Of a stretch of DNA of 64,000 nucleotides, positions 1 through 48,046 are shown in pieces (the first letter of the stretch is position 1; each line of letters opens with the position of its first letter). Made by a program: the position numbers and the translations under genes. Source of the DNA: Bacillota bacterium (GTDB lineage: Bacteria > Bacillota > Dethiobacteria > DTU022 > UBA8154); contig JAUSPO010000039.1 in NCBI GenBank assembly GCA_030656575.1, positions 8,724 through 72,723 on the forward strand, written 5' to 3'. Under the pieces are notes generated by a model. It saw only the letters and a program-made list of their open reading frames with translations. It was not told where the DNA came from and made no database searches.

Positions 1-1981
1 TGTCCATGAACAGCACGGTATCGGGCGGTATATGGGTATTCGCACGATGGATGTGGCAGGGATAACCAGGGATTACCTTTATATTAAATATGCCCGGGAA
101 GACAAACTCTATCTTCCTGTCGATCAGATAGATTATTTGCAAAAGTATGTGGGAGGGGAAGGTGGGGCTGCCAGAGTCTCTTCACTGGGAGGGCAGGAAT
201 GGACAAGAATTAAAAATCGTGTCAAAGCATCCGTACAGGAACTTGCGGCAGAACTTCTTTCCCTCTATGCGGCACGTGAAGCAACTCCTGGGCATGTTTT
301 CCCCGCCGATCAAATCTGGCAGGGTGAATTTGAAGATCGTTTTCCCTATGAAGAAACACCCGACCAGCTTCGGGCGGTGCAGGAAGTAAAGGATGACATG
401 GAAAAAAACAGGCCCATGGACCGGCTACTTTGTGGAGATGTGGGCTACGGGAAAACAGAGGTATCGTTGCGGGCGGCTTTTAAGGCTGTGATGGGAGGCA
501 AGCAGGTTGCTTTTCTAGTACCTACAACTATTTTGGCACAGCAGCATTATGAAAACTTTCTTGAACGTTTTAAAGGTTTTCCTGTGGAGATTGAACTGTT
601 AAGCCGTTTCCGCAGCCCTAAAGAGCAGCTAAAAGCGATCAGGGGTATTAAGGCCGGCACTGTGGATATTGTTATCGGAACTCACAGGCTTTTCTCCAAA
701 GACACAGATTTTAAAGATCTGGGGCTCTTAATTATTGACGAGGAACACCGTTTTGGTGTCCGCCATAAGGAAAAGCTGAAGATGCTTCGCAAGGATGTCG
801 ACGTATTGAGTATGACAGCCACCCCTATTCCCCGCACCCTGCATATGGCCATATCAGGGGCAAGGGATCTTAGTGTGATTGATACTCCGCCGGAGAACCG
901 CTACCCCGTTCAAACCTACGTTGTGGAATATTCTGATCACCTCGTCAGGGAAGCCATTCAAAGGGAGTTAAACCGCGGAGGTCAGGTCTATTTTATCTAT
1001 AACCGAATTCAGAGCATTGAAAAATGGGTATCTAAACTTCAGGAACTTGTTCCTGAGGCTAGAATTATTGCCGCACATGGTCAGATGCCTGAGCATAAAT
1101 TGGAAGAAGTTATGCACAAGTTCCTGCACAGAGAGTATGATGTCTTAATCAGCACAACGATAGTGGAGGCCGGACTTGATATTTCCAATGTAAATACGAT
1201 GGTGATCTATGATTCCGATTATTTTGGCCTGGCCCAGCTTTACCAGCTCAGGGGAAGGGTGGGACGTTCCAACCGACTTGCTTATTGTTACCTTACCTAT
1301 AGAAAGGATAAGGTAATTTCAGGAGATGCTGTGAAGAGGCTTCAGGCGATTAAAGAATTTACCGATTTGGGTTCCGGTTTTAAAATTGCCCTGCGGGATC
1401 TTGAAATCAGGGGAGCGGGTAATATCCTCGGTCCGGAACAACATGGCTCTATCATGGCTGTGGGTTACGATCTCTACTGCCGACTTCTTGAGCAGGCCAT
1501 AGAAACAATGAAAGGCAAAAAGGATTTGGCCCCCAGAAAAATTGAACCTAAAATCGATTTAAATGTAAATGCCTATCTTCCTTCCTCGTATATACAAAAT
1601 CAGCAGCAGAAGATTGAGCTATATCGCCGTATTGCCGTATTGGAGAATAAGGATGAACTGCTCGATATGGCAGGCGAATTAAAGGATCGTTATGGACGCC
1701 TGCAGTCACCTGTTGAAAACCTGCTGCTGGTCATGCGGCTCCGCCAACTCGCCCGAGAAAAAAATGTGGAAAGCATGGAACAGCAGAAGAACTTGACAAT
1801 CATCAAATTTCATAAGGAAAGGACCTTTGAGAGTGACCACCTCTGGCAGTTGGTAAGTCGAAACCGCCGTACTCTTTCACTCCATGCGGGAAAGGGAGTT
1901 TCCCTGAAAATCAAGAACCTGCAGGTCAAGGAAAAAGATTACCTCAAACATCTGATCGAAATTCTGGAACAAGTCATCTAG
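1..1981 (+). CDS. mfd: Transcription-repair coupling factor Mfd, C-terminal ~650 aa (5' end lies outside the window)
   Basis: ORF 32..1981 stays in frame back to the window edge. Superfamily-2 helicase motifs are present (GKTEV, DEEH, TAT, QLRGRVGR), followed by a TRCF-type C-terminal domain. Confidence 0.9.
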   Translation, partial: VHEQHGIGRYMGIRTMDVAGITRDYLYIKYAREDKLYLPVDQIDYLQKYVGGEGGAARVSSLGGQEWTRIKNRVKASVQELAAELLSLYAAREATPGHVFPADQIWQGEFEDRFPYEETPDQLRAVQEVKDDMEKNRPMDRLLCGDVGYGKTEVSLRAAFKAVMGGKQVAFLVPTTILAQQHYENFLERFKGFPVEIELLSRFRSPKEQLKAIRGIKAGTVDIVIGTHRLFSKDTDFKDLGLLIIDEEHRFGVRHKEKLKMLRKDVDVLSMTATPIPRTLHMAISGARDLSVIDTPPENRYPVQTYVVEYSDHLVREAIQRELNRGGQVYFIYNRIQSIEKWVSKLQELVPEARIIAAHGQMPEHKLEEVMHKFLHREYDVLISTTIVEAGLDISNVNTMVIYDSDYFGLAQLYQLRGRVGRSNRLAYCYLTYRKDKVISGDAVKRLQAIKEFTDLGSGFKIALRDLEIRGAGNILGPEQHGSIMAVGYDLYCRLLEQAIETMKGKKDLAPRKIEPKIDLNVNAYLPSSYIQNQQQKIELYRRIAVLENKDELLDMAGELKDRYGRLQSPVENLLLVMRLRQLAREKNVESMEQQKNLTIIKFHKERTFESDHLWQLVSRNRRTLSLHAGKGVSLKIKNLQVKEKDYLKHLIEILEQVI

Positions 1982-2001
1982 GACAGGAAGGATGATCAAA
2001 T

Positions 2002-2148
2002 ATGCAGGGCTATGCCTGCCCAAGGTGCGGCAAAAAAACAAGCGGAGATTTTTTATCCTGGAAAGGTGGCATAAACCGGGCAATATGTAACGCCTGTGAG
2101 CAGGAAGAAAAAAAGAAGGAGCAGGAAAGGGAAAAGAACGCTGATTGA
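2002..2148 (+). CDS. Small zinc-ribbon protein (48 aa, CPRC...CNAC), not in the ORF track
   Basis: ATG at 2002 with GGAAGGA about 9 nt upstream. Two CxxC pairs and a Lys/Glu-rich tail. Lies just downstream of mfd. Confidence 0.35.
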   Translation: MQGYACPRCGKKTSGDFLSWKGGINRAICNACEQEEKKKEQEREKNAD

Positions 2149-2186
2149 GCTATTGACTGAGCGCGAACCCTAAGCCTGGTTGGAGA

Positions 2187-2384
2187 GAGAACTTGTCTTC
2201 GCGAAACCGGAAACCAACTATAGTCTTCTACATCCTTTTTTTGCTGATACTACGGCCCTCGACCCTTTGCACGGGACGTCAAGGAAATGCGCCAGGCGAA
2301 ACGTCCCCCCTTGGCTCACCCGTCCCCTTGGCTCACCCGTTCCCTGGCTCAGAATGGCGTCGGAGAACTTGTCTCCGAAACCGT
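2187..2384. repeat. ~200-bp structured intergenic element bounded by direct repeats GAGAACTTGTCTYCG(C)GAAACCG, containing a cluster of GGGACG/CGTCCCC and TTGGCTCACCCGTYCCC motifs
   Basis: Direct repeats at 2187-2210 and 2364-2384. Internal tandem TTGGCTCACCCGT(C/T)CCC x2 and CGAAACGTCCCCCC related to the dispersed repeat family. Only spurious overlapping ORFs. Confidence 0.5.
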
Positions 2385-2459
2385 CCCTGCCACGTCCCTG
2401 CCTCTGGGTTAACAAATCAGTGGTAATTGTCATAGTATACAGCATGAGGGGATGGTTTT

Positions 2460-2729
2460 ATGATCGATTTAGAATTTGTTGGTGGCATTTCTGCTGTAGC
2501 AATTATTATGGGACTTGTGCAGTTATCGAGGAAGTTTGGAGTAACTGAGAAATATACTCCACTTGTTGCAATTTTTTTGGGACTGTTAGCGTCTCTCGGT
2601 TATAATTATTTTGGTGACCAGAAATGGTTTGAAGCTTTAATAATCGGTCTTGCCCTTGGCTTGAGCTCTATTGGCCTTGAATCTACTACAAGGATTGCAT
2701 TACAGGTATATCGGGAACAGAGGAAATGA
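2460..2729 (+). CDS. Small membrane protein, 89 aa, 2-3 TM helices (possibly holin-like)
   Basis: RBS GAGGGGA 8 nt upstream of ATG. Hydrophobic segments. Followed by a rho-independent terminator. Confidence 0.45.
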   Translation: MIDLEFVGGISAVAIIMGLVQLSRKFGVTEKYTPLVAIFLGLLASLGYNYFGDQKWFEALIIGLALGLSSIGLESTTRIALQVYREQRK

Positions 2730-2746
2730 ACTCGTTAGCTGAAGCA

Positions 2747-2766
2747 TTGGGAATTAGGTGGAGAGC
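2747..2766. repeat. Palindromic hairpin GGTGGAGAGCCTACTCCACC (copy 1 of 2)
   Basis: Perfect 7-bp stem with 6-nt loop. The same motif recurs at 52324-52353. Both copies follow the 3' end of a + strand gene and are followed by GAT(T)GAAAAA. Confidence 0.5.
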
Positions 2767-2828
2767 CTACTCCACCACGATAAAAAAATCTCAATTGTGC
2801 TATACTTAGAAAAATCAGGGGTACCGCT

Positions 2829-2855
2829 CTCCCGGCGTTAACGCCGGGTTTTTTA
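2829..2855 (+). terminator. Rho-independent terminator CCCGGCGTTAACGCCGGG + T6
   Basis: GC-rich 7-bp stem followed by TTTTTT, downstream of the 2460..2729 ORF. Confidence 0.7.
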
Positions 2856-2911
2856 ATGTCGCGTGCCCAGCTAAGCGCGCATTATCTTGCCGGCGCAAGT
2901 CCGGTTTTGAT

Positions 2912-2941
2912 GAGCCAGGGGGACGTTTCGCTTGGCCCAAG
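2912..2941. repeat. Dispersed repeat GAGCCAGGGGGACGTTTCGCTTGGCCCAAG (family copy)
   Basis: Near-identical 26-30 nt copies at 12228-12258 (same orientation) and 15108-15133 (reverse complement). Degenerate relatives at 2296-2351 and 12171-12204. Confidence 0.7.
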
Positions 2942-3042
2942 ACATCACTGCCCTGTTTGGTTTCCTGTTTTTGGCTGCTTATGTTATACTGAAAAAAGGG
3001 GGGTTACAGGAAATGGGTTCAAAGGAAATATAAAGCGGACTG

Positions 3043-5213
3043 GTGTCACTTGATGAAATGCTAAGCGGTTTTCGCCAGGGCGATAATGTAGTCTGGCAGG
3101 TAGACAGTCTGGATGAATATACATTCTTCGCAGAGCCTTTTGTGAAAGAGGCTCTACTGGATAACGAAGACTGTGTTTACCTGAGATTTGCCCCTCACCC
3201 CCCCCATTGTCAGTCCCCGAAAAGGCCTGATCATGAAGAAAGTGGACCCGGGACGCGGCTTTACATATTTTGTAACCGAAATACACAGGATTATCAGGGA
3301 ACAGGTAGAGGCCAAGACAAAATTTTTTATCTTCGACAATTTATCGGCCCTCGTGGATGAGTGGGCTACAGATGAATTGCTTGCAAATTTCTTCCAGGTG
3401 ACATGTCCTTTTCTAGGCGAACTGGATACAGTGGCTTATTTTGCATTAACGCGTGGCAGGCATGCGAATAGTGCCGTTGCCCGCATACGGGATACTACCC
3501 AAGGTGCTGATAGATGTTTATCGTATCAAAGAAGTGATCTATGTTCATCCTTTAAAAGTTTGGGATCGATATTCGCCCCAGATGTTTTTACCCCATATCG
3601 TTACCGGAAAAACACTTTGGCCTGTTTTCCAAAGCGGTGAGGCCGCCGAGGTCTCTTCTGTGGCCAGGAAAAATTCCCATAGTGAAAAAACCTCTATTGC
3701 CCCATGGGATAGTGTCTACAAAAAGATTTTTCAATACAAAGATTCTGGTGAAAAGTCAGCGACAGTGGCCACAGAACTGCAGGCCCTGAAACAGGAATTG
3801 GCCAGAATGTTGATAGGTAGTCACGCCGAGTTTAACAAGCTGTCTGAAGCTTTTTTTACTTTGGGGGATTTATTGGGAATCAGGGACAGGATGATCGGTT
3901 CTGGAAGAATTGGGGGCAAGGCAGCAGGAATGCTGCTCGCCAGGAGGATCTTATTGGATCTGCCGGGTGAGATTGAACAGGACTTTTTAGCCGGTTCATT
4001 CCCGCCGGATATCTACGAACAATTTCGGAGCATGCTGGATTATTTCGGACAGGCACCGATCATTATCCGTTCGAGCAGCCTTTTGGAAGACAGCTTTGGT
4101 AACGCTTTTGCCGGTAAATATCTAAGCATTTTCTGCGCCAACCAGGGGGGGCCTGAGGAAAGGCTTAATGCTTTTTCACGTGCTGTAAAACTTGTCTATG
4201 CAAGCGCGCTGAGCCCTGAAGTCCTTTCCTACAGGCTCAGGCGTGGTCTTGGGGAATCTGATGAACAGATGGCTATCCTCGTACAGCGTGTCTCAGGAAT
4301 GCGCTACAGGCATTATTTCTTTCCGAACCTTCCGAACAGCCAGCTGCTATTTTCCTTTATGAAAGACGGATATTTGTTTGATCCTCCGTATTTAGACATG
4401 GAGACGGGTTCAGCAGGTAAACCGGTCTTAACATTTAACAGGCTGATCAGCAGAACTCCTTTTGTAAAAGTTATGGGTGAAATGGTAGGAAAATTGGAAA
4501 GAGCTTACGGACATCCGGTAGATACAGAATTTACAGCATTTGTGAATTCACGGGGCAGTTTGAATGTTAATTTACTCCAGTGTCGCCCCTTACGGCTGCC
4601 GGGCTTGTCAGGGCCGCTGAAGTTTCCTGAGCATATTCAATCACATCAGATTCTTTTTAAATCTATGAAGGTTATTAATGGTGGACTGATCAGTCAGATA
4701 AAATATATTATATATATAGACCCCAGACGTTATGCTGTCATAAGCTCAGTTTCCTTGAAAAGGTCTGTTGGCAGAATCGTCGGTGCCCAGAATAAACACC
4801 CGCTTCTTGTGGATGGTCAATTTCTGATGATGGGTCCGGGCAGGTGGGGGAGCAGTAATATTGACCTTGGGGTAAATGTAAGCTATGCGGATATTGATAA
4901 CACTGCTGTTCTTGTTGAGATTGCCCGTGAAGCATCCGGGCATGTGCCGGAGGTATCTTACGGCACGCATTTTTTCCAGGATCTTGTAGAAGGGCAGATC
5001 ATTTACCTGCCTGTTTATCCGGAACTTCTGGAAACTGCTTTTAATAATAGTTTCTTTGAAGATTCGCCTAACTCTCTGGAAGAACTCCTGCCGGGAAATG
5101 AACAGTTAAAGAGTGTGGTACACGTGATCAATATTCCTGCTGTAACTAACGGTAAATATGCCAAAGTCGTGGCCGACCCACAGACACAAAAGGCTGTTTG
5201 CTTCCTTGAGTAA
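3043..5213 (+). pseudogene. PEP-utilizing enzyme (pyruvate,water dikinase-like PEP/pyruvate-binding domain) with N-terminal KaiC/RecA-like domain lacking a P-loop; disrupted by two +1 frameshifts
   Basis: Three consecutive ORFs in frames 1, 2, 3 (3043..3360, 3188..3640, 3453..5213) read as one protein. The first shift coincides with a C8 homopolymer at 3198-3205. PPDK_N-like region (IIRSSSLLEDSFGNAFAGKY, DEQMAILVQRVSG) is in the last ORF. Confidence 0.6.
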
Positions 5214-5236: not shown

Positions 5237-5515
5237 ATGGAAAGCTATTATATTGTTACATTCGAAACTACCCATCATGCCCTGAAATTTGAGAAGACTC
5301 TCAAGGGGGAAGGAATATCTTTGACCCTTTTGCCGGTGCCACGGCGCCTCAGTTCCAGCTGCGGCATTGCCGCCAGGTTTCTCCCTGACGTTCTGCACAC
5401 GGTTAAGGAACTGATCGGTTGTCATGATCTGCAGTTGGATAAACTTTATCTTTTTGAGAATGAAAAGAATAATGTGAAATTTTACTCTGTAGAACTTCAG
5501 GCAGAGGAGGAATAA
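5237..5515 (+). CDS. DUF3343-family small protein (putative Se/S carrier-like)
   Basis: 92 aa; motif YYIVTFETTHHALKFEKTLK...LLPVPRRLSSSCGIAARF typical of DUF3343. Confidence 0.6.
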   Translation: MESYYIVTFETTHHALKFEKTLKGEGISLTLLPVPRRLSSSCGIAARFLPDVLHTVKELIGCHDLQLDKLYLFENEKNNVKFYSVELQAEEE

Positions 5516-5517
5516 TC

Positions 5518-7230
5518 TTGCCCCCGACATTTGATGAGCGTGTACATCTTTCCAGGGTAGCCCAGGGATTGGAAAAAGCTGATCTTCTCATCCGGGATGG
5601 AAAAGTGATCAATGTTTATTCCAAAGAGATCCTTTCTGCAAACATTGCTATTGCTCATGGCAGAATTGCCTATGTCAGGCCGGATGACCTTCCCGTCGGC
5701 CCTGCGGATGAGAACATATCTGCCCGGGGTAATTTTCTTTCTCCCGGATATATTGAGCCCCATGCTCATCCGTGGGTTATTTATAATCCTGAAAGCCTGA
5801 GTAAGGCTGTACTCCCCCTTGGGACAACCACCCTTGTGATGGAGAACCTTGTCTTTTATCAGCACGGAGGGCCGCCAGCCTTTATAAAACTTGTTAAAGC
5901 CATGGAGTCATGCAGTTCCCGTTTTTACTGGCTGACAAGGGCTGTCCCCCAATCCCCCCTCCGTGACGAAGAAGATCTCTTTTCTGCCCATAACATTGAA
6001 ACGGTGCTCGGCCTGCCTCAGGTAGTGGGCATTGCCGAAATTACAAGATGGGCTGAACTCTTGGATGAAAAGCCTTCCCTCTTTCGTAAGCTTGTTTCGG
6101 CAATGGAGCAGCAGAAGAGAATAGACGGACATACATCAGGATGTAAAAACGGAGCCCTCAATGCCTTAGCCGGATTGGGGATTAACTCCTGTCATGAACC
6201 CATCAACAGCAAAGAAGTGTTGGAACGACTGAGGCTCGGTATGTGGGTCATGCTGCGGCAGAGTTCCCTCCGCCCCGACTTCCATGCCATATTACCCGGT
6301 TTGCTGCGTGAAAACATTTCTCTCGATCGGGTCATGATGACAACGGATGCTGCCGAACCAACTTTTGTCTTTAAGAATGGCTTTGTAGACGGTCTGATCA
6401 AAGCTGCTCTTGAGCATAATCTGGACCCTGTAACGGCTATCAAGATGGCCACTCTCAACCCGGCAGCATATTATGGCCTTGATGAGGACATAGGGGGAAT
6501 TGCCCCGGGAAGATATGCAGATATTTTATTCCTGAAAGACCTGCAGAACCCTACTCCTGAAAAGGTCCTCATTGGTGGGAAAGCACCGGATAGTGCTCCG
6601 GGAACAAATACCTTAGATTGGGGACAGCTTGGTTTTGCATCAAATTTTATTAAGCCTTCCTGGCTGGATGAATATTCTGTTTTGGCTCCGGATAGGGGAA
6701 AGGTTCCGGTAATTAGAGTGGTGAGCAGTGGTATTACCAAGCTTGATTATATAGAGTGGAGTGGTGATTCTTTGCCGGAAGAAGTTTATTTCTGCGCTCT
6801 TCTGGGACGCCGGGGAGAATTCTTAATTACCTGCTTCGTCAGTGGTTTTGCAGAGGATCTTCCGGCCTTAGCTTCTTCCTTTACTACATCCATGGGAGTC
6901 CTGGTTATGGGCAAATCTTTGGAAACTATGAGCCGTGCCGCTGCAAGGTTGTATGATCTGGGGGGCGGGATAGTTCTTTGGGGAGAAAGTGAGGCATTGT
7001 TCGAAATGCCTCTTCAGATAGCTGGAATGATGACTCCTTTATGTTTAGACGAGACGGCCGAACAGCTGGGAATATTATTCGAATTAATGGGGGAAAGAGG
7101 TTTCCGTCACAACGACCTGCTTCTTTCACTCCTTTTTCTTTCTTGTGATTTCCTGCCGGATGTGAAGATAACACCCATGGGAGTCCTTGACGTTAAAAAA
7201 AGAAAAATCATTTATCCTCCCAAGTTTTAA
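5518..7230 (+). CDS. ade: Adenine deaminase (amidohydrolase superfamily)
   Basis: 570 aa; TTG start with GGAGGA 8 nt upstream; metal-binding HxH motif (IEPHAHP); adenine-deaminase-length C-terminal domain. Confidence 0.75.
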   Translation: MPPTFDERVHLSRVAQGLEKADLLIRDGKVINVYSKEILSANIAIAHGRIAYVRPDDLPVGPADENISARGNFLSPGYIEPHAHPWVIYNPESLSKAVLPLGTTTLVMENLVFYQHGGPPAFIKLVKAMESCSSRFYWLTRAVPQSPLRDEEDLFSAHNIETVLGLPQVVGIAEITRWAELLDEKPSLFRKLVSAMEQQKRIDGHTSGCKNGALNALAGLGINSCHEPINSKEVLERLRLGMWVMLRQSSLRPDFHAILPGLLRENISLDRVMMTTDAAEPTFVFKNGFVDGLIKAALEHNLDPVTAIKMATLNPAAYYGLDEDIGGIAPGRYADILFLKDLQNPTPEKVLIGGKAPDSAPGTNTLDWGQLGFASNFIKPSWLDEYSVLAPDRGKVPVIRVVSSGITKLDYIEWSGDSLPEEVYFCALLGRRGEFLITCFVSGFAEDLPALASSFTTSMGVLVMGKSLETMSRAAARLYDLGGGIVLWGESEALFEMPLQIAGMMTPLCLDETAEQLGILFELMGERGFRHNDLLLSLLFLSCDFLPDVKITPMGVLDVKKRKIIYPPKF

Positions 7231-7291: not shown

Positions 7292-7771
7292 GTGTTGTCC
7301 ATGATGCCATCAAGAGATGAACTCTACTCCTTATATGACAGTTTTAACTCAATATATTTTCAAGATAAATTGCCATCCTCAAAAGAAGTAATGATCGAAT
7401 TCTCAGGCAGACTAACAGCCTCAGCGGGAATATGTTTTCCCAGAAAAAAGATTATCAGGTTGTCCACACACTATCATGAGAAGTTTCCTGATGATTGCGC
7501 TGCAACTCTGTTACATGAAATGATTCACCTGGCTGTTCCCGGGCATGGGGAAGAATTCAAGGCATGGATTCGGGTAATACGCAGCAAAGGAGGCAGCGTG
7601 GAGCGGCGTCCCAGGGAAAGGGCAACACAGGCAGTATTTAGATGGAAATATATCTGCGTGAAGTGCATGAAGGAGTACTTTAGAAAAAGGAGATTAAAGA
7701 ACGGTGGCAGAAATTTCCTTTGCAGTCTCTGTAAGAGTAAGTTAAACGAGCTTAAGCTGCCAAAAACTTAG
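7292..7771 (+). CDS. SprT-like zinc metallopeptidase-domain protein with C-terminal zinc ribbon
   Basis: HEMIH motif and C-terminal CxxC...CxxC. Confidence 0.6.
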   Translation: MLSMMPSRDELYSLYDSFNSIYFQDKLPSSKEVMIEFSGRLTASAGICFPRKKIIRLSTHYHEKFPDDCAATLLHEMIHLAVPGHGEEFKAWIRVIRSKGGSVERRPRERATQAVFRWKYICVKCMKEYFRKRRLKNGGRNFLCSLCKSKLNELKLPKT

Positions 7772-8032
7772 ACACGGTTCTTTTGTCCGACCGGCTTCCA
7801 CGCAAGATATAATGCCTGATTTAACGTGAACATTCACCTTGGACCGAGTCTTCCGGCCTTTATTACGCCAAACGTCCTTGATGTGCTGGTAAAAACATTT
7901 GACATCAAGCCCATATCTACTCCAGAAAAGGACCTGGCTGCAATCTTAGATACGAAGTAAGCAATCGGGGATAAAGGGAGGGACATTTTTTATCGGAACT
8001 GTAAAACGTAACCTCGGCTAGTTTAAGGTAAG

Positions 8033-8126
8033 GGGACACACCTCTTTTTTGCTAAGGTAAGGGGACACACCTCTTTCAGAGGAATGTCCCCAATGGATTG
8101 TCCCCGATCGTCCCTGGTTATGCGTT
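8033..8126. repeat. Tandem repeat TAAGGTAAGGGGACACACCTCTTT x2, followed by an inverted GGGGACA...TGTCCCC and a GTCCCC cluster
   Basis: Two direct 24-nt copies at 8035-8058 and 8063-8086. GGGGAC/GTCCCC motifs relate to the other dispersed repeats. Lies in the 5' leader of the 8186..8941 gene. Confidence 0.55.
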
Positions 8127-8185
8127 ACAGTACTGGTAAAAGGAGATGTCCCCCTTTCCCTACCTCGTCCAAAAGCAAGGAGGCG

Positions 8186-9426: not shown

Positions 9427-10356
9427 ATGACCGAGTACAACGAAAAGGCAGTGGCCCGGAAGCGGCCGGTAAATATTGTTGCAATTGGGGCTATCTTAGT
9501 TATTTTGGCGTTGGGGACGGTTCTCCTGATTAATTTTCTTCCAGGTCAGAGTGAGGGCAAGAGTGGGGCAGCAGCTACTGTAAATGGTGAAGTAATCACA
9601 ATGGATGAACTTTATGAGGTTATGCTGAAAGAAGGCGGCAGGGATTTTTTAGACCGTCTTATTGCTAATCGCCTCATTCTCCAGGAAGGTGAAAAGTTAG
9701 GCATCACAGTTAGTGACGAGGAAATTGATGCGGAGATACAAAGTGTAATCAATGAGAATTTTTATGGTAATGTAGAAATTTTTCGTCAGGCAATAGAGCA
9801 GTACGGAACAACAGAAGAAGCTATCCGGGATGATTTATCAATAGAAATGGTTCTCCGTAAGATTGCCAAAAGCCAGATTGAAGTTACAGATGAGGTTGCC
9901 AGGGAGTATTTTTTGAGTAACCAGGGATTATATAACATCTCTGAACAGGTTGAGGCACGCCATATCCTGCTTGAAACTAAGGAGCAGGCTGAAGAGTTAA
10001 TACAGCTTTTAGATAGCGGCAGCGATTTTGCCGAATTGGCCAGGGAAAATTCTATAGACACTGTTTCCAGGGCGGATGGTGGTAAATTAGGATTTTTCGG
10101 AAGAGGAGAGATGGTCCCTGAATTTGAGAATATTGCTTTCAACCTTGCATTAAATCAACACAGTGATGCGGTAGAATCACAGTTTGGGTTCCATATTATT
10201 GAAGTTCTTGATCGCAACGCTGCTCGGGAAGTAAGCTATGAAGAGGTTCAGGATAAAGTTAAGGGAGACCTGTCCGAAAGGTTAGTGTCTGAGAAAATGT
10301 CGGAAATAATAAATTTGCTCTGGGAAACGGCAGATATTGACTACAAGTTATCGTAA
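9427..10356 (+). CDS. prsA: Parvulin-type peptidyl-prolyl isomerase / foldase (PrsA/SurA-like) with N-terminal membrane anchor
   Basis: N-terminal TM segment, then SurA-N-like region, then PpiC domain (HILL...FGFHIIEV). Confidence 0.75.
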   Translation: MTEYNEKAVARKRPVNIVAIGAILVILALGTVLLINFLPGQSEGKSGAAATVNGEVITMDELYEVMLKEGGRDFLDRLIANRLILQEGEKLGITVSDEEIDAEIQSVINENFYGNVEIFRQAIEQYGTTEEAIRDDLSIEMVLRKIAKSQIEVTDEVAREYFLSNQGLYNISEQVEARHILLETKEQAEELIQLLDSGSDFAELARENSIDTVSRADGGKLGFFGRGEMVPEFENIAFNLALNQHSDAVESQFGFHIIEVLDRNAAREVSYEEVQDKVKGDLSERLVSEKMSEIINLLWETADIDYKLS

Positions 10357-10746: not shown

Positions 10747-12093
10747 ATGAAAAAAAAGGTAGTCGTTATTGGTGGAAATGCGGCCGGGATGAGTGCAGCC
10801 AGCCAGGTAAAGAGGCTAAAACCGGAATGGGAAGCAGTAGTGCTTGAAAAAAGTGAATATTTTTCTTATGCATCCTGTGGAATGCCTTATTATCTTGAAG
10901 GGATTGTACCTGAGATTTCTAATCTAATGGAATTTAGTTCTATTGATGCGATTAGAGAAAGAAATATAGATCTGAGACGTAACTGTGAGGTAACAGAGGT
11001 TAAACCTGAAGAAAAAATGATTATGATAAAAACACCGGGATGACCGGAAAGTGAAACCTTTGATTTTTTACTTATAGCATCAGGCACCCTCCCTCTGACA
11101 GCAGGCATAAATATTCCTAGAGAAGCAGAGAGAATTTTTACATTGAAGAACATTGATGATATGAAAAGAATCAATTATTTCATAGAAAAATTAAAACCCC
11201 GGAGATGCGCAGTAATAGGTGGGGGTTACATTGCTTTAGAAATGCTGGAGGCTTTTAAAACGAGGGATATAGAAACTCACCTTATCCACCGCAGAAATGA
11301 TCTTGCCCAGACCTTTGAAAAAGAAACCTCCAATATTATTAAAGAAAAAATGCTTGCAGAAGGAATAATCTTAAAACTGGAAACGGCTGTTAATGCCCTG
11401 GAAGAGAAAAACGGCCATGTAATAGTCAAGACAGACAAGGAGGAACTGCAATACGACTTTGTCCTGGTTGCAACAGGCGTAGTGCCCAATACGGATTTTC
11501 TTAAAGGGTCTGCAATTGAGCTGGGGATAAAAGATTCTGTTAAGGTTAACAGGTATCTGCAGACAAACTACGATTATATCTATTCTGCAGGTGACTGTGC
11601 GGAGACAGTAAATATGATTACAGGTTAAATTGCCTATGTCCCACTTGCCCCAAAGGCAAATAAGGAAGGATTTCTTGCCGGTGTAAATATCTGCGGGGGC
11701 AAAGAAGAGTTTCCAGGTATACTGGGGACCGCGATTACGAAGTTTTATGATCTCGGTATCGGACGGACAGGATTAACATTGGATGAAGCAGAAAAAAACG
11801 GTTTTAATCCCGTCAAATACCAACTTTCTTCATTGAACAGGGCAAAGTACTACCCTGGCTCAGAACAGATGAATTCAATCATTATCGCCAGCAAAGACAA
11901 CGGACGTATTTTGGGAGCCCAAATAACCGGGCCTCTTGACAGCGTAAAGAGAATAGATGTTTACTCTACGATGATTTACAATAAAATGACGGTTAAAGAT
12001 GCCTTTAACCTGGACCTGGCCTATGCGCCTCCATTTTCCCCTGTCTACGACCCTGTTCTCCTGGCCGCCCGAGTCGGGAGAAAACACGTTTAA
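10747..12093 (+). pseudogene. FAD-dependent pyridine nucleotide-disulfide oxidoreductase (NADH oxidase / CoA-disulfide reductase family) with two in-frame stop codons
   Basis: ORFs 10747..11043, 11143..11628 and 11779..12093 are all in the same frame. They are separated only by TGA (11041-11043) and TAA (11626-11628). The sequence between them also reads as Nox/CoADR: GG(N)AAG FAD motif, active-site SCGMPYY, GGGYIALE NAD motif. Confidence 0.7.
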
Positions 12094-12132
12094 TATGCTT
12101 AACATCTGAGATATGTTTAACATGTGTAAGAT

Positions 12133-12163
12133 AAAAAAACTGCTCTTATAAGCAGTTTTTTTC
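12133..12163 (+). terminator. Rho-independent terminator AAAAAAACTGCTCTTATAAGCAGTTTTTTT (probably bidirectional)
   Basis: Perfect hairpin flanked by A-run and T-run. A near-identical hairpin recurs at 15081-15106, adjacent to another copy of the dispersed repeat. Confidence 0.65.
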
Positions 12164-12227
12164 TGCCCATCCAGGGAGCCATGGGGGACGCAAACGTTTG
12201 GCCCTGCCCAAAAAGACTTAAGAGAAA

Positions 12228-12258
12228 GAGCCAGGGGGACGTTTCGCTTGGCTCAGCG
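12228..12258. repeat. Dispersed repeat GAGCCAGGGGGACGTTTCGCTTGGCTCAGCG (family copy)
   Basis: See 2912-2941 and 15108-15133. Flanked by the degenerate copies CCAGGGAGCCATGGGGGACGCAAACGTTTGGCCC (12171-12204) and CCCCTGGCCAGTCCCCCTGGTCAG (12295-12322). Confidence 0.7.
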
Positions 12259-12436
12259 TGATGACCTTTCCTGACAAAAAGAACTGACCCCTGGCCAGTC
12301 CCCCTGGTCAGCCCTCAACTTTAATCTGGCCAAGCAACAATCGCAGGTAAATTTTGAATATTTACAAAGGAATGAGAAGATGTTATATTAAGATAAAACT
12401 ATAAGTTTTCACCCGCTGTCGGGGGAAGGAGGAGCA

Positions 12437-12610
12437 ATGAATACATATACTTTTATCTTAAGAAATCAAGACGGTGAGCAATGCTGCCATATTCCCAAGG
12501 CGATTATAGAAAGGAATTATGGGCTTCTGGAAGAAGATACATATATCTTCCATACTCCCCCCCAGAGGCCAAAATCAAGTCATTTATCTGAGCGACCATC
12601 CCAGATTTAA
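12437..12610 (+). CDS. Small protein, 57 aa (below the ORF-track cutoff), strong RBS
   Basis: GGAGG 5 nt upstream of ATG. Cys-rich (CCH) N-terminal half. Contains a C7 homopolymer. Confidence 0.3.
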   Translation: MNTYTFILRNQDGEQCCHIPKAIIERNYGLLEEDTYIFHTPPQRPKSSHLSERPSQI

Positions 12611-12611
12611 G

Positions 12612-12642
12612 GAAAAAAAAGATAGCCTGTGAAGGCTATCTG
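12612..12642 (-). terminator. Rho-independent terminator for acs (minus strand)
   Basis: AGATAGCCTTCACAGGCTATCT hairpin followed by T8 on the minus strand. Confidence 0.6.
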
Positions 12643-12701
12643 AAACAATAAGGAGTAGTCAGATATTTTTCAGCTTGTTAAGCTGACATAAGCTTTTGCT
12701 G

Positions 12702-14651
12702 TTAACTGGCTTTGGCCGCATATTTGTCTTTTATTGAATTAATAATATCCGGATCCATTAAGGTGGTAGTGTCACCGATCACTTTTCCTTCAGCTATATC
12801 ACGGAGGAGCCGTCGTATGATTTTTCCACTGCGGGTTTTAGGAAGTTCAGCTGTAAAGTAAATATCCTCCGGGCGTGCCAACGCCCCGATTTTACTGACA
12901 ACCAATTTTTTCAGTTCTGCGACGAGTTCATCCGATCCGTTATGACTTTCCTTAAGTGTAACAAAGGCAGAGACAGCCTGCCCCTTAAGTTCATGTTTCT
13001 TGCCAATTACAGCAGCCTCTGCTACTGCAGGGTGTTCCACCAGCGCGCTTTCTATTTCCGCAGTTCCAAGACGATGCCCCGAAACGTTGATAACATCATC
13101 TATTCTCCCAATACACCAGATTGAACCATCTTCGTCTTTCTTGGCTCCGTCACCGGCCAGGTATATCCCTTCGTACTGCTGCCAGTAAGTGCTGAGATAA
13201 CGTTCTGGATCTTTATAAAGGTTGCGAAGCATCGCCGGGTAGGGTGTATTAACTACCAGGTAACCCTGTTCACCAGGCTTTACAGGTTTCCCCTGTTCAT
13301 CAACAACATCCACGTCCACACCGGGAAATGCGCGAGAGGCTGAACCTGGTTTGAAGGAGGCGTCTCCCGGAAGAGGGGTGATCAATATCATCCCTGTCTC
13401 TGTCTGCCACCATGTATCCATAACCGGGCATTTTTCTCCACCAATATATTTGTAATACCACATCCAAACTTCGGGATTAATAGGTTCTCCCACTGAACCG
13501 AGGATGCGAAGACTGCTGAGATCATGTCCTGCCAGCCACTCTTCACCCCAGCGCATGAACATACGGATTGCCGTGGGGGCAGTATAAAAAATGCTTACTC
13601 CGTATTTTTCAATAATAGACCAAAAGCGGTTCTGGGCCGGGAAATCAGGAGTCCCCTCAAACAGCACGGTTGTAGCCCCATTGGCCAGCGGACCATAAAC
13701 AATGTAACTGTGACCTGTTATCCATCCGATATCCGCAGTGCACCAGTATACATCCTGCTCCTGGTAGTCGAAGATATGCTTGAATGTAGTGTGAACGCCC
13801 ACCATATAACCTCCGGTGGTATGAAGAATGCCTTTGGGTTTTCCGGTCGTTCCGCTGCTATAGAGGATAAAGAGGGGGTCTTCGGCATCCATGACTTCCG
13901 GCTCGCAATATAACGCTGCATCATTGATCAGATCTGAGTACCATAGATCCCTGTCCTGTTCCATGTGAATATCCTGCCCGGTCCTATTAACAACTACCAC
14001 GTTTTTAATGCTTTGGCAGTTGCTGCCCTCCAGTGCTTTATCCACATTGTCTTTAAGAGGGACAACTTTGCCCTTCCTGTATCCTCCGTCGGCAGTAATC
14101 AAAACCTTGGAATTGGAATCCTCGATCCGGTCTTTCAGGGCGCCGGGACTAAAACCTCCAAAAACTACGCTGTGGGGCGCGCCAATCCGTGCGCATGCCA
14201 GCATGGCTATGACAGCCTCAGGGAGCATTGGCATATAAATTGTAACCACATCGCCTCGTTTTGTTCCCAGTTTCTTAAGGACGTCAGCAAATTGGTTAAC
14301 CTCGCGGTAAAGGTCCTGGTAAGTTAAGACACGCCTGTCGCCCCGGTCGCCTTCAAATATAATAGCTGCTTTATTTTTTCGCCAGCCGGAGATGTGACGG
14401 TCAACGCAGTTGAAGGATGCATTTAACTTGCCATCGTTGAACCATCTGTAAAAGGGTGCCTTACTATCGTCAAGGATTGTATTCCACTCTTCAAACCATG
14501 AAATATTTTTACTCATTTCGGACCAGAAATCCAGTCGGCCATGTCGGGCCTTTTCCCGCAGCTGATTGGTATTTTGTTTTACCGTTTTATCTGTAATGGG
14601 ATTTGCTATTTCCTGGTAAGGGACCGGGGTGTTATTCTGTTTTTCTTTCAT
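12702..14651 (-). CDS. acs: Acetyl-CoA synthetase (AMP-forming acetate--CoA ligase)
   Basis: 649 aa; AMP-binding signature ([11 protein letters not shown]), length and C-terminal Lys motif typical of Acs. Confidence 0.9.
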
Positions 14652-15080
14652 TAAATCTGCCCTCCTAAAAATGAATTATTTAAACTTGGGAAGGATTTAT
14701 CATTGATAAAAAGCATCGTATGCGGTTGACGAAAACTCTTAACAGTATCCAATATACCTCCCTTCGAAGTAAGTAAGCTATTTTTTTGCCCCGTTCCATG
14801 ATACAAACATTTATTGAGTTCTGACCTATATTTCTACAACGCTATCCATAAACCCTTTATATTTTTGTATTAAATATCGCGTTTTTCCCTACAAATTATT
14901 GTTATTTCTGGTTTATCTCTACTAAATAAAGACCTTACCCTATGTTTAATTATCATTAAAAGCCGTACTGTCGAGGTTTGGGTGGATGTTTTCTTTTCGT
15001 TTATGTGGTAGGGTTTTTCCAAGCTATAAAAATAATAAATATATTCATAAACCATTTAATAGATAAAAGAATAAGCATTA

Positions 15081-15106
15081 AAAAAACTGCTCTTTTTAGC
15101 AGTTTT
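15081..15106. terminator. Hairpin AAAAAACTGCTCTTTTTAGCAGTTTT (terminator-like, paired with dispersed repeat)
   Basis: Same hairpin as 12133-12163 with one loop change. Lies immediately 5' of the repeat at 15108. Confidence 0.5.
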
Positions 15107-15107
15107 C

Positions 15108-15177
15108 TGAGCCAAGCGAAACGTCCCCCTGGCATTTATTTACGTCCCCCTGGCATTTAATGGCCGGGGGGACGTGG
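15108..15177. repeat. Dispersed repeat (reverse-complement copy) CTGAGCCAAGCGAAACGTCCCCCTGG, followed by two further CGTCCCCCTGGCATTTA units and GGGGGGACG
   Basis: Reverse complement matches CCAGGGGGACGTTTCGCTTGGCTCAG (12231-12256). Overlaps the 3' junk tail of the glnA fragment. Confidence 0.7.
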
Positions 15178-15580
15178 GTTTTAGTATGCGGCTAAGTAGT
15201 TTTTTAGTTCCCAGTTCTTTTAATTCCCCCAATACCTTCTTTAGGACAACTCTGGAACAACCTGGAAAAGGGAGCCCATCCGCACCATAAACGTCGCAGA
15301 TCATTCTTGCCGTTTTACCTCTTCCAATATTTCGCCAGGGGAAAATGGCAAAGGTTGAAGGATCCGGGGCAAGACACATATCTGACTCATCAACCCTGAC
15401 AAAACCTTTTACTGATGAACCGTCGAACATTACCTGGTTATTTAATGCCTCATCGAGCTGTTTAGGAGAGATGGCCACATTTTTCAGCTTACCAAAGATA
15501 TCCGTAAACTGCAGTCTTATAAAATTAACATTCTCCTTTTCAACCAGATTTCTGACATTATCACCACAATATTCGTCCAA
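15140..15580 (-). pseudogene. glnA: Glutamine synthetase type I, N-terminal ~125 aa fragment (truncated)
   Basis: N-terminal GS beta-grasp domain (FIRLQFTDIFGKLKNV...MFDGSS...DPSTFAIFPW...LKKVLGELKELG). Similarity stops abruptly; the ORF then reads through the dispersed repeat into a stop. The remaining ~320 aa are absent. Confidence 0.7.
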
Positions 15581-15752
15581 AACAAAAATCAGTTCCTATT
15601 ATTTTTTTTTTGTAAAAAGTAAAAAACACTGGCTAAAACCAGTGTCAATCCTAGAATACCATATATTGATATTTACCTCAAACGGCTTGTTCGGAGTAAA
15701 ATGCATAGTAATAGGTTACTATCAGTCAGAGGGCGACAGGTCTCTTATCTTT

Positions 15753-15912
15753 AATATTCGTAACTACTCAGCCATTAGGTTACTTAGTCGCTCGGGACGC
15801 AAAGCATGGGGAGGGTTCCATCGTCTTCTCTTCGGACCTTCGCTACGCTACGGTGACGCTCGAACCGTCCCCATGCTTCACTTGTCTTTTATCTGAGTAG
15901 TAACTAATATTC
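15753..15912. repeat. Nested palindromic element X1 (~160 bp). 19-bp terminal inverted repeats AATATTCGTAACTACTCAG / CTGAGTAGTAACTAATATT enclose an inner hairpin CATGGGGAGGGTTC...GAACCGTCCCCATG
   Basis: TIR identity 17/19. Internal long hairpin. A second copy lies at 23968-24134. No ORF inside. MITE/PATE-like. Confidence 0.6.
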
Positions 15913-15955
15913 TTTCATATAGGTCCGAAGAATAGCCGATACCTGTGGTTTGGTC

Positions 15956-16312
15956 TTAAATTCGTGAAGGTAAAAAAAGCCTGCCTATTTTAGAACTGTT
16001 TTCCTGGATGGAAGCAAGACTTTCTTCGGAAAAGTAGAGCCTGTTATCTTCAGTAACTTTAACAACCTGAACGTTTAGCAGGAAGTCTAGAGCCTGAGGT
16101 TTGTAGTCGCGCCTTTTGAACATGGGGCCGATCAATTTTTTGGGAAGGATTCCAAGTTCTTTGCTGGTTTTAGCATTATTGACTTCTAAAGCGTTATTCT
16201 TCCGAAATATTTTTACGACCGCAATAATAGCACTCCTTTGAAGATAAATAGAGAGTCCAAAAAAAATAATTACCATCATCATTAAGAGAAAAAGCACTTT
16301 GATTATTTCCAT
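15956..16312 (-). CDS. Hypothetical membrane-anchored protein
   Basis: 118 aa with N-terminal TM helix. Confidence 0.4.
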   Translation of the reverse strand: MEIIKVLFLLMMMVIIFFGLSIYLQRSAIIAVVKIFRKNNALEVNNAKTSKELGILPKKLIGPMFKRRDYKPQALDFLLNVQVVKVTEDNRLYFSEESLASIQENSSKIGRLFLPSRI

Positions 16313-16454: not shown

Positions 16455-17651
16455 ATGGAGAAAGATCCTTTTTCTGAATTTAGGGTATCCGTTGAATTGG
16501 ATGGAGAAAAACGCATCTCCGGGAATAATCTTTTTGACCTTTTGGAGAAGATTACGAGATATGGCTCCATCAGCAGAGCTGCTTCCGAAATGGGTATTTC
16601 TTACCGTTATTCCTGGGGGTTAATTCAGGCTGCCGAAAAAGCTTTAGGGCTGGCCCTTGTGAATAAGCAGATTGGCGGATATGAAGGTGGGGGAACATCT
16701 CTCACCCGGGAAGGTAAGGAACTTCTGGGCCAGTACAAGGAGTTTAAAGGTGAAGTAGACACCCAGCTAAACCGCTTTGTAAAAAAAGCAAAGCAGGCAA
16801 AGAATGCCGCCCATCCAACAAAGGATGGTTCTGGCCAAGGGGACGGTTCTTCCGGCCAGATTTTCCAACGGCACCTGCTGCTGGCCAGCACCATGGAGCC
16901 TGTGGAAACAGGATTGCTGGATGTTCTGGAAGGGGCTTTTTATCAGTCCTCCGGTGTACTGGTCAGGCACATCGCCCTTGGAAGCGGGCGTGCCCTGCAG
17001 ATTGCCAAAAGTGGACGAGTGGATATGGCCCTTACCCATGCCCCGGAACTTGAAGAGGAATTTATGGAGGAAGGGTGGGGGGAGTCCAGATTTCCCGTCA
17101 TGGCCAATGATTTTGTCCTTGTGGGCCCCGTTTCCGACCCTGCAGAAATTGCTAAAATTGACCCTTCTGGCGGCACAAAAGAAGCCTTTCGTAAGGTCGC
17201 CCTTTCACGTTCGCCTTTTATCAGCCGCGGTGATCATTCGGGAACTCACTTGAGGGAATTGAAAATATGGGAGTCTGCCGGTATTTCTCCTGAAGGAGAA
17301 TGGTATTTAAAATCTTCCGGTGTGGTCGGCAATTTGGGAATTCTGCGCCTTGCTCTGGAGAAAAAAGCCTATACCCTTGTTGACAGGGCTACCTTTCTTT
17401 TATCCCGCAGCTTTGAAAAAATGATCAGGATCTTTACCGGCACTGAAGAAGGTAATGCCCTGACCGGCGAATTGGAAAACATTTTTTCTTTAACCCTTGT
17501 GAACCCGGAGCGCATACCGACGGTTAATTCTGAAGACGCCCTGCTCTTTGCCGGGTGGATACAAGGGAAAGAAGCACAGCAGGTAATTGCCGGTTTTGGA
17601 CAGGAAAGCTTTGGGAGGCCGCTTTTTTCAATAGTGAACCCGTTCAGCTAA
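16455..17651 (+). CDS. TunR-like tungstate/molybdate-responsive regulator: ModE-type N-terminal HTH fused to a TupA-like periplasmic-binding-protein-fold domain
   Basis: N-terminus (LFDLLEKITRYGSISRAASEMGISYRYSWGLI) matches the ModE HTH. The C-terminal ~250 aa align colinearly with the TupA encoded at 20785..21630 (DAxLTHxP, FVLVGP, RGDxSGTH, AYTLxDRATxL). Confidence 0.7.
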   Translation: MEKDPFSEFRVSVELDGEKRISGNNLFDLLEKITRYGSISRAASEMGISYRYSWGLIQAAEKALGLALVNKQIGGYEGGGTSLTREGKELLGQYKEFKGEVDTQLNRFVKKAKQAKNAAHPTKDGSGQGDGSSGQIFQRHLLLASTMEPVETGLLDVLEGAFYQSSGVLVRHIALGSGRALQIAKSGRVDMALTHAPELEEEFMEEGWGESRFPVMANDFVLVGPVSDPAEIAKIDPSGGTKEAFRKVALSRSPFISRGDHSGTHLRELKIWESAGISPEGEWYLKSSGVVGNLGILRLALEKKAYTLVDRATFLLSRSFEKMIRIFTGTEEGNALTGELENIFSLTLVNPERIPTVNSEDALLFAGWIQGKEAQQVIAGFGQESFGRPLFSIVNPFS

Positions 17652-20493: not shown

Positions 20494-20570
20494 ATAACGG
20501 TGCCTGGCACTTAACTTATTAACTTATTGTCACCATTGCGGATTCCTGACCCACTCTATAAAAGTTTTCG

Positions 20571-47940: not shown

Positions 47941-48046
47941 TTTTGCGATTATTATAATTATATCATAAAATTAAAACTTATCTACTATCATTTTATGTGG
48001 CAGCGAGTGGCTCAGGAATCCGCAATGGTGATAATAAGTAAATAAG

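Follow-up and report, generated by a model that had tools for sequence, protein, structure and literature searches.

What kind of element is a 26-nt sequence that recurs, almost letter for letter, at several places between the genes of one bacterial chromosome? The question is raised by a stretch of 64,000 nucleotides (the window, which here always means the whole 64-kb stretch that was analysed; positions 8,724 to 72,723 of contig JAUSPO010000039.1, assembly GCA_030656575.1), which is ordinary chromosome on a 79-kb contig of the NCBI metagenome-assembled genome (MAG) "Bacillota bacterium" (locus-tag prefix Q7J85). An earlier note, made from the letters alone, had described the sequence as a genome-specific dispersed repeat, possibly mobile and joined in two places to a terminator hairpin. 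The analysis reported here indicates that the 26-mer is probably a lineage-specific, partly degenerate variant of a repetitive extragenic palindromic (REP)-type family of anaerobic Bacillota, with a partner in the lineage resembling the REP-associated tyrosine transposases (RAYTs). The repeat is of the known REP/RAYT kind and not a new kind of system.

Searched at up to three mismatches, the 26-mer CCAGGGGGACGTTTCGCTTGGCYCAG has exactly three matches in the window, at 2915-2940 (+, one mismatch), 12231-12256 (+, no mismatch) and 15107-15132 (-, no mismatch), while none of 100 dinucleotide-preserving shuffles held any match (expected number 0), which bears out the near-identical copies that the earlier note had placed at 2912, 12228 and, in reverse complement, 15108. 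Extension by one base gives 27-nt copies of what is here called variant A (GCCAGGGGGACGTTTCGCTTGGCCCAA). The copy at 2914-2940 (+) lies about 60 nt past the terminator of an 89-aa open reading frame (ORF), that at 12230-12256 (+) within a segment without synteny to the close relative represented by contig L009, and that at 15107-15133 (-) between the native glnA stop and a terminator hairpin, with its ortholog at L009 1457-1483. The second and third are complementary at 27 of 27 positions and form perfect inverted repeats, 2.85 kb apart, around acs. When the intergenic segments that carry these and the neighbouring copies were locally aligned, the similarity ended sharply at 25-27 nt and the flanks were not shared.

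The degenerate relatives that had been proposed beside these copies are also present, at 2287-2351, 12178-12204, 12297-12308 and 15143-15174. The cluster at 2287-2351 (-) holds a degenerate unit (AAGGGGGGACGTTTCGCCTGGCGCA, 2287-2313) and a stutter of two 17-nt partial copies of the 5' arm; a second degenerate unit (GCCATGGGGGACGCAAACGTTTGGCC, 12178-12204, +) stands in tandem with the 12230 copy and is a weak match (8.9 bits, E 4.6) to the family model described below; and a copy reduced to the core (ACCAGGGGGACTGGCC, core 12297-12308) occupies 12290-12315 (-). At 15138-15179 two 12-nt cores (CGTCCCCCTGGC / GGCCGGGGGGACG) face each other as a partial tandem copy (15143-15154, -) and an inverted core (15163-15174, +), forming a G+C-rich hairpin directly 3' of the native glnA stop that has a fold z-score of -5.8, appears on the terminator-scan list and is kept in the relative at L009 1437-1468. 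The short sequence GGGGGACG occurs seven times in the window, against 1.78 expected. All three full copies, and the degenerate ones as well, lie between genes; the one canonical unit of the window (variant B, GCCAAGGGGACGGTTCTTCCGGC, 16834-16856, +) is coding, and it is also the best model match in the window (34.6 bits, E 7e-9). It lies in frame within the linker (GQGDGSSGQ) between the helix-turn-helix (HTH) and periplasmic-binding-protein (PBP) domains of a 398-aa LysR-type protein, and it is present in contigs L009 and L042 as well. The LysR/PBP linkers of homologs are unrelated in sequence and similar in length, the window protein's linker being no longer than theirs, and an in-frame insertion of the unit into this linker is a plausible, unproven reading of the sequence.

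The wider family was recovered with the search pattern GCCAGGGGGACGKTTCKYYYGGY, made after L009 showed a second variant, GCCAGGGGGACGGTTCTTTCGGC. In the metagenome collection this pattern retrieved 72 contigs sharing a 23-nt hairpin with the consensus GCCAGGGGGACGGTTCTCYTGGC and the dominant form GCCAGGGGGACGGTTCTC(T/C)TGGC. The unit has a 10-bp stem and a 3-nt loop, GCCAGGGGGA-CGG-TTCTCYTGGC, to which the window variant, GCCAGGGGGA-CGT-TTCGCTTGGC, corresponds with nine of the ten stem pairs retained and one internal mismatch. Over 64 distinct units, pairing holds in 91.6% of cells, against 86.3% in shuffles, and the covariation score is 0.246, against 0.144 when shuffled; none of 500 shuffles reached 0.246, which also lies above all slid controls. 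Six of the ten stem pairs change on both sides, and the outer six pairs covary (GCCAGG/CCTGGC, ACCAGG/TCTGGT, CACATG/CATGTG, AGACAG/CTGTCT, GTCAAG/CTTGAC). The top of the hairpin, positions 7-17 (GGGACGGTTCT), is nearly invariant, positions 7-16 having been fixed by the search anchor itself, and within it the G-T pairs at 7-17 and 9-15 are conserved, which on the other strand are mismatches. The contigs range from 27 to 73% G+C, the clear intergenic cases from about 33 to 60%, and the two that are taxonomically placed are a Clostridiales bacterium (L030) and Desulfitibacter sp. BRH_c19 (L024).

The way in which these units are arranged speaks to what they are. They are multi-copy, with up to 10 in 1 kb of a contig; one convergent spacer (L081) holds nine units within about 500 nt, four in '+' and then five in '-' orientation with a terminator in the centre, and a same-strand gene row (L067) carries a '+ -' doublet in each of three consecutive intergenic spacers, with seven strong units in 6.2 kb. 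Inverted doublets occur at nine loci, which chance cannot produce, and are perfect in L039, L040, L043, L057, L063 and L079. Inverted neighbours within 120 nt are '+ -' in 20 cases and '- +' in none, and direct neighbours number 35. About 74% of the metagenome units fall outside crude ORF calls, mostly near 3' ends, where single units face either way without bias with respect to the adjacent gene (20 sense, 22 antisense). Of 147 units, only 11 have a T-run after them on the sense side, and the outer stems of units that the pattern did not select contain 46 G-T cells and a similar number, 38, of A-C cells. Given the balance of orientations, the '+ -' neighbours, the few T-runs and the near-equality of G-T and A-C, a DNA-level REP-type repeat fits better than a strand-specific RNA signal. 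A unit often has partial copies of its 5' arm ahead of it, which match its own lineage-specific stem, the same stutter being visible in the window at 2314-2351 and 15143-15154, and this sequence pattern points to local slippage; in 29 of 147 units the flanks lengthen the stem by at least 3 bp. Full-unit doublets are absent from the window, which has only the core-level inverted pair at 15138-15179.

A covariance model, R1, built from metagenome units alone, matches all three variant-A copies (2914-2936, +; 12230-12252, +; 15111-15133, -) at 29.3 bits (E 4.8e-7) and finds all four units in L009. Below these, it matches an arm of a separate repeat, the X element (24061-24083, -; 16.3 bits, E 0.013), the degenerate copy at 2291-2315 (-; 16.0 bits, E 0.017) and, weakly, 8138-8158 (-; 13.4 bits, E 0.13). 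The earlier note had seen GGGGAC cores in a tandem repeat and in the X elements; they are indeed there, within 8024-8160 and at 15794-15875 and 24011-24092, and these weak matches, together with conservation across genomes, uphold a kinship between the core and both. A further match in contig L011 (16.3 bits) was rejected as a unit, being an ordinary terminator hairpin. The searches gave no sign of carriage by plasmids or phages: the pattern retrieved no contig from IMG/VR, and an inverted doublet of the canonical unit (L043 form) had no match in plasmid and phage collections. The exact window variant had none in IMG/VR or in the JGI metagenomes, which do not include the window's MAG, and GGGGGACGTTTCGCYTGGC gave only seven single chance matches, in unrelated taxa, among species-representative genome contigs, a set likewise without that MAG. 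Literature searches by sequence string returned primers and other unrelated matches only, and Rfam on eight metagenome loci gave sub-threshold look-alikes of microRNA precursors and two weak small-RNA matches only.

The link to a transposase comes from a Pfam scan of ORFs bracketed by units, in which the L035 ORF proved to be a Y1_Tnp protein; all-against-all BLAST grouped it with ORFs in L038 and L048. The three proteins, encoded at independent loci (L035 3583-4413, -; L038 342-1205; L048 2141-2950) match Y1_Tnp at E 1e-14 to 1e-16 and the NCBIfam model NF047646, "REP-associated tyrosine transposase", at 76-79 bits. The IS200 NCBIfam model gave a single match (L035) at only 20.9 bits, and phmmer with approximate IS608 and IS200 TnpA queries found nothing in the loci. 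For the L048 protein, the one queried, the sole match in the PDB is the Escherichia coli TnpA-REP (4ER8), and IMG labels one member of the cluster RayT. In all three proteins the HUH motif NHVHL and the tyrosine motif RYIHxNPVKAG are invariant and an HTH-like extension of about 120 aa follows at the C-terminus, at a mutual identity of 37-48%. Units flank the RAYT-like gene on both sides in L035 and L048, and downstream only in the short contig L038; the earlier description as REP-like is thereby sustained, for a hairpin family whose members flank RAYT-type transposase genes. In L088, which covers the L048 locus, the gene (2348-3160) is bracketed by inverted units at 2279-2301 (+) and 3164-3186 (-), 39 bits each, the second beginning 3 nt past the stop codon.

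This last locus stands close to the window's organism. Its assembly (ERZ27300247) also yielded the close relatives L009 and L013, and a gene 2 kb from the L048 RAYT is at least 90% identical to protein Q7J85_11625 of the window's MAG, which occurs exactly on Logan contig L087, from a run that also yielded the window region. L087 and L048 are 87% identical on both sides of the site, and L048 2045-3014 (L088 2252-3221), comprising unit, RAYT, unit and stutter, corresponds to 36 nt in L087 (3259-3294). The empty site is a plain terminator, GAAACTGGCC-ttcagc-GGCCAGTTTC-T7, whose two arms flank the block in the relative; from the sequences the difference may be either an insertion or a deletion. 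No NCBI protein belongs to the cluster formed at 90% identity around the relative's RAYT.

Turnover is equally visible around the window copies. Relative contigs were found through homologs of acs and of the 89-aa ORF (L009, L013 and L014 from ENA ERZ27300247 and ERZ27300252, L012 from SRR27370453), and their aligned blocks are about 78-91% identical to the window at the nucleotide level. L009 is syntenic with the window from 17080 to 12336, and its homology stops exactly at the 12170-12320 cluster. Past acs it has two units in the orientation opposite to the window copy, so that the glnA/acs pair is direct in L009 and inverted in the window, and it carries both variants side by side (4286-4308 and 4317-4339). 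In place of window 2152-2406, about 255 nt holding the 2287-2351 cluster, L013 has about 26 nt, and L012 lacks 2092-2418. No homology links the window to L013 over 66-100 nt around 2912, where L013 has fragments of other small repeats. Close relatives therefore differ in the presence or absence of units at 2152-2406, in the REP-RAYT-REP block and in the rearranged cluster past acs. The suggestion that the elements are mobile or recombinogenic and not passive terminators is thus well founded, since units flank RAYT-type genes, clusters come and go between relatives and synteny ends at 12170-12320. Every copy in the window has ...TTTCGCTTGG (CGCTTGG, or CGCCTGG), and the two variant-A copies of L009 have ...TTTCGTTTGG (CGTTTGG), although the copies at the glnA site are orthologous. 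Between two of the window copies all 27 nt agree, while the orthologous window-L009 pair has three differences, which suggests recent copying or gene conversion within each genome, on the strength of one diagnostic position.

The same comparison revises what had been said of the repeat's range and setting. L009 has the repeat at the orthologous site after glnA, in the order stop, CGTCCCCCTGGCC, atcaaat, GCCAGGGGGACGTTTCGTTTGGTTCA and the same terminator hairpin as the window, so the repeat must predate the split of the two lineages; with a relative of about 84% identity sharing it at this site and the family present in 72 metagenome contigs, it is not genome-specific. Nor does a copy coincide with a truncation of glnA. 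By three-frame translation, the window gene has its N-terminal part and a frameshift at about 15216-15225, and the native C-terminus, NWELKNYLAAY*, survives upstream of the repeat in a different frame. An internal deletion with a frameshift carries the remnant ORF beyond the native stop, and for this reason it ends only at 15140, inside the repeat cluster. L009 retains a different piece of the gene, the last 60 or so codons, so the truncation is an internal deletion that differs between lineages and does not lie at the repeat; the order of native stop, repeat and terminator is kept in both.

The proposed composite of repeat and terminator hairpin also lacks support as a unit. The hairpin TAAAAAAACTGCTCTTATAAGCAGTTTT at 12132-12159 recurs at 15079-15106 with 26 of 28 positions identical, a notable likeness, but one to which A/T runs and a 5-bp stem contribute much. 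The first, a bidirectional terminator-like, A/T-flanked hairpin, stands 3' of a fragmented Pyr_redox pseudogene; the second is the glnA terminator, kept at L009 1482-1510. At 12132 the unit lies 70 nt further on in the same orientation, whereas at 15079 it abuts the hairpin with no spacing and is inverted, so the two cases are not copies of one block, and T-runs follow just the 11 of 147 family units already mentioned. An intrinsic terminator has a G+C-rich hairpin with a T-run directly after it, and the repeat units as a class do not conform to this: no T-run follows any window copy. The 12132 and 15079 hairpins are structures separate from the units, each an ordinary terminator in a convergent intergenic region.

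Taken as a REP-type system, the locus would work as follows. The units would be non-autonomous, copied or moved in trans by an HUH/Y1 RAYT-like enzyme with an extra C-terminal HTH, which would recognise the hairpin in single-stranded DNA and whose own gene sits between two inverted units. Units would build up where they are tolerated, at gene 3' ends, in convergent spacers, in the loops of terminator hairpins and occasionally in protein linkers; once placed they could slip locally, leaving 5'-arm stutters and tandem copies, and act as breakpoints for indels and rearrangements. Effects at the RNA level, as extra 3'-UTR hairpins beside terminators, would be secondary, and gene conversion or recent copying may keep the window copies alike. 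As the RAYT block is absent where the closest relative has a RAYT, the few window copies with their weak hairpins are probably an orphaned or low-activity population.

Several observations weigh against this interpretation. No RAYT gene was found in the 64-kb window by Pfam annotation of ORFs and tblastn, and none stands at the one syntenic site of the window organism that was inspected (L087). The NF047646 scores of the relatives' proteins lie just below the equivalog cutoff of 80. In the 64 kb plus 3.8 kb of this genome that were read, every variant-A copy seen lies in the first 16 kb of the window, and the hairpin of this variant is weak, with a DNA fold of -3.4 kcal/mol and a z-score of -0.9. 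About a quarter of the family units fall inside crude ORF calls, and no conserved GTAG-type tag stands at the foot of the hairpin in the eight flanking columns on either side (-8 to -1, +1 to +8) in 125 non-redundant units. The conserved G-T pairs fit a strand-specific substrate, single-stranded DNA and RNA alike. Finally, since window and L009 sequences supplied the pattern that retrieved the loci, R1 is partly circular in its 5' half, its 3' half and stem logic being independent.

The most serious competitor, which we consider unlikely, is an RNA element: a 3'-UTR or intercistronic hairpin whose top is read by a host RNA-binding protein or RNase, acting in mRNA stability or termination and spread by its usefulness. 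The G-U pairs 7-17 and 9-15 of the top GGGACGGTTCT can form on the sense strand alone, the majority of single units are no more than 400 nt from a gene 3' end, T-runs stand beside 11 units in the sense direction and 2 in the antisense direction, units in convergent spacers face the nearer gene in 17 cases against 4, and the glnA 3' region keeps the order hairpin, unit, terminator in both the window and L009. Yet single units at one 3' end are as often antisense (22) as sense (20), G-U cells in the outer stem of pattern-unselected units (46) hardly exceed A-C cells (38), no Rfam family matches the units in the window or in the eight metagenome loci, the window variant folds weakly, and in three loci the units flank a transposase gene. 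We give marginally less credence still to an account without dedicated machinery, in which a region in decay has been left with the copies through local duplication of segments, inversion and gene conversion, and their family likeness is incidental. Their confinement to 2.3-16.9 kb, among pseudogenes (Pyr_redox, the glnA remnant) and indels relative to close relatives, would suit it, as would the two perfect 27-nt inverted repeats 2.85 kb apart around acs and the near-identical hairpin that is also present twice; but similarity between copies stops at 25-27 nt with unshared flanks, a model from unrelated contigs scores the window copies at E about 5e-7, the relative has adjacent variants and a RAYT bracketed by the canonical variant, and the stems covary across many genomes.

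Least probable of all, and a long shot in our judgement, is a double-stranded DNA site for a host protein (nucleoid-associated, gyrase or regulator), kept for chromosome organisation or regulation. The 11-nt core is invariant in genomes of 33-60% G+C and the clusters and arrays are spaced at 17-50 nt; E. coli REPs and bacterial interspersed mosaic elements (BIMEs) do bind IHF and gyrase. Against this, the outer stem covaries so as to keep pairing, which a duplex site does not need, positions relative to promoters are inconsistent, with copies downstream of convergent genes and after terminators, and association with a Y1 transposase is a simpler account of the conservation. Further ideas were discarded. 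A composite transposon or insertion sequence carrying acs has neither target-site duplication nor transposase, the 649-aa ORFs of mfd and acs are unrelated, and the relative's copies are direct. A sigma-54 promoter, likeness to a tmRNA 5' end (GGGGACGTT), CsrA-sponge-like GGA hairpins, CRISPR remnants and attC/dif sites were dropped either on inspection or for ill-fitting positions and orientations. Nor does any target-site duplication, as expected of a miniature inverted-repeat transposable element (MITE), surround the 26-mer copies or the 27-nt inverted pair around acs.

A REP-type family with a RAYT-like partner, the reading preferred here, can be set beside systems already described. The family has the marks by which REPs are known: a short hairpin palindrome, mostly extragenic, with inverted doublets in one direction only and a RAYT flanked by repeats. 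Like E. coli REP/BIME with TnpA-REP (4ER8), it consists of short imperfect palindromes, extragenic and multi-copy, that stand alone, pair up in inverted orientation or form mosaic clusters with other motifs, at gene 3' ends and in convergent spacers, with a cognate Y1/HUH gene bracketed by repeats, and the relative's protein has NF047646 as best NCBIfam match and 4ER8 as sole PDB match. Unlike the E. coli elements, it has no GTAG-type tag and a conserved sequence at the hairpin top, its transposase carries the C-terminal HTH region of about 120 aa, and its hosts are anaerobic Bacillota. One unit sequence spans genomes of very different G+C whose transposases are only 37-48% identical, while REPs are usually species-specific.

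The REP doublet-forming hairpins (REPINs) and RAYTs of Pseudomonas (Bertels and Rainey; PMC5581495) are similar in that inverted doublets make long hairpins with one dominant orientation, and a single RAYT locus lies between repeats and is present or absent among relatives, and different in that the window has no full-unit doublet and direct tandem neighbours in the family are no less common than inverted ones (35 against 20). Group 1 RAYTs are reported from Clostridia (PMC5581495). IS200/IS605 elements share the Y1_Tnp domain with its HUH and Tyr motifs, the lack of target-site duplication and conserved non-Watson-Crick hairpin positions, consistent with strand-specific recognition of single-stranded DNA; but the IS200 model scores 20.9 bits against 79 for the REP transposase model, there is no TnpB, and the 23-nt units far outnumber the gene. 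With the CGTC-tagged REPs, Neisseria dRS3/NIME and Rickettsia RPEs (Di Nocera et al. 2013, PMC3733652), the family has in common GACG/CGTC within units, a predominance of head-to-head dimers, clusters interleaved with other repeat families and occasional in-frame genic copies (window 16834-16856). CGTC REPs are defined by a terminal unpaired CGTC tag, an 8-9 bp stem starting with A/T pairs, a 4-5 nt loop and a CCA tail (PMC3733652), whereas here GACG is internal at the top, the 10-bp stem has G-T pairs and starts G-C/C-G, the loop is of 3 nt and there is no CCA tail; the unit columns thus fall outside that super-family as defined in PMC3733652, a survey that reports no Firmicutes.

The repeats share the window with other small elements. 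The X element (15760-15905) is a 146-bp MITE with 12-nt terminal inverted repeats, GTAACTACTCAG and CTGAGTAGTAAC, and CATGGGGACGGTTC in the arms of its central hairpin; a 7-bp target duplication, AATATTC (15753-15759 and 15906-15912), flanks it as befits a MITE, and it is precisely absent from L009. Logan contig L001, from the same organism, ends inside it at 15789. A second X-related copy (23968-24133) has the right terminal repeat CTGAGTAGTAAC at 24113-24124 and lacks the left one, and shows an extra upstream half-unit, GACATGGGGACGGTTCGA (GACATGGGGACGGTTCGAAAGCGCC). The region 8024-8160 holds a second family of GGGGAC-footed hairpins, AAGGGGACACACCTC...GAGGAATGTCCCC, with a 29-nt tandem partial copy; the hairpin (GGGGACACACCTC...GAGGAATGTCCCC) has a conserved 2x2 internal mismatch, folds at -11.4 kcal/mol (z -4.8) and matches at 30 of 33 positions a termite-gut contig (L050, 5707-5738), where it lies about 20 nt from a unit of the 23-nt family. 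On its sequence, the region is best described as a BIME-like mosaic of GGGGAC-footed hairpins. A 60-nt repeat (ACGGTGCCTGGCACTTAACTTATTAACTTATTGTCACC...) occurs inverted at 20497-20556 and 48005-48064 with 92% identity, and a 30-nt piece of it stands in L013 (5040-5069) where the window has the 2914 unit; a small dispersed repeat (CCACMTACGCTACGCTTAGAGGTGGG...) is found at window 52361-52411 and 32897-32925 and at L013 5155-5211, at non-orthologous sites. At least nine tandem 21-nt (7-codon) repeats, at 53284-53546, lie within a 148-aa coiled-coil-like ORF on the minus strand (53169-53615).

By Pfam and ORF annotation, the genes around the repeats are mfd (32-1981, +), the 89-aa membrane ORF (2460-2729, +), a PPDK_N-like gene (3453-5213, +), adenine deaminase (5518-7230, +), a sprT-like gene (7292-7771, +), a prsA-like gene (9427-10356, +), the Pyr_redox gene split into three ORFs (10747-12093, +), acs (12702-14651, -) and the glnA remnant (15140-15580, -). 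Directly 3' of mfd, a small ORF with two CxxC motifs (MQGYACPRCGKKTSGDF...) at 2003-2148 has a 46-aa gene call as its counterpart in L013. At window 2997-5210, the PPDK_N-like gene (ORF 3453-5213) is absent from L013, in which the 89-aa ORF is followed after 233 nt by a Se_S_carrier-like ORF (window 5237-5515). The Pyr_redox (pyridine nucleotide-disulphide oxidoreductase) fragments, of 98, 161 and 104 aa, lie in a segment without synteny to the relative; the 161-aa fragment found only itself in a search of 5.8 billion proteins, and the origin of the 12132 hairpin is not traceable in relatives. Pfam on most of the larger ORFs found no transposase in the window. Rfam 15 over the whole window at the gathering threshold returned one tRNA and nothing else, and around the repeats (1900-3100 and 12050-16000) it gave no match at E up to 1.

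Much is known of REP/RAYT systems in Proteobacteria and very little of any in Bacillota, for which this analysis provides a concrete unit sequence, a structure model and a candidate transposase. The 23-nt hairpin persists at 33-60% G+C though the transposases have diverged to 37-48% identity. For annotation, the case explains why the MAG has several breaks in its assembly, intergenic segments that vary and what looks like a "truncation". We suggest only tentatively, and with some doubt, that this is an undescribed REP family of unusual sequence conservation in anaerobic Bacillota (Desulfitibacter, Clostridiales MAGs, termite-gut and digester contigs), with a RAYT-HTH partner and a preference for the loops of terminator hairpins, where the REP-RAYT-REP block of the relative lies. 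Relatives that differ by this whole block offer a useful comparison for the question whether a REP population decays when it no longer has its transposase, and, if the family is what we tentatively suggest, the natural pair with and without a RAYT would show REP decay, homogenisation and REP-associated rearrangement.

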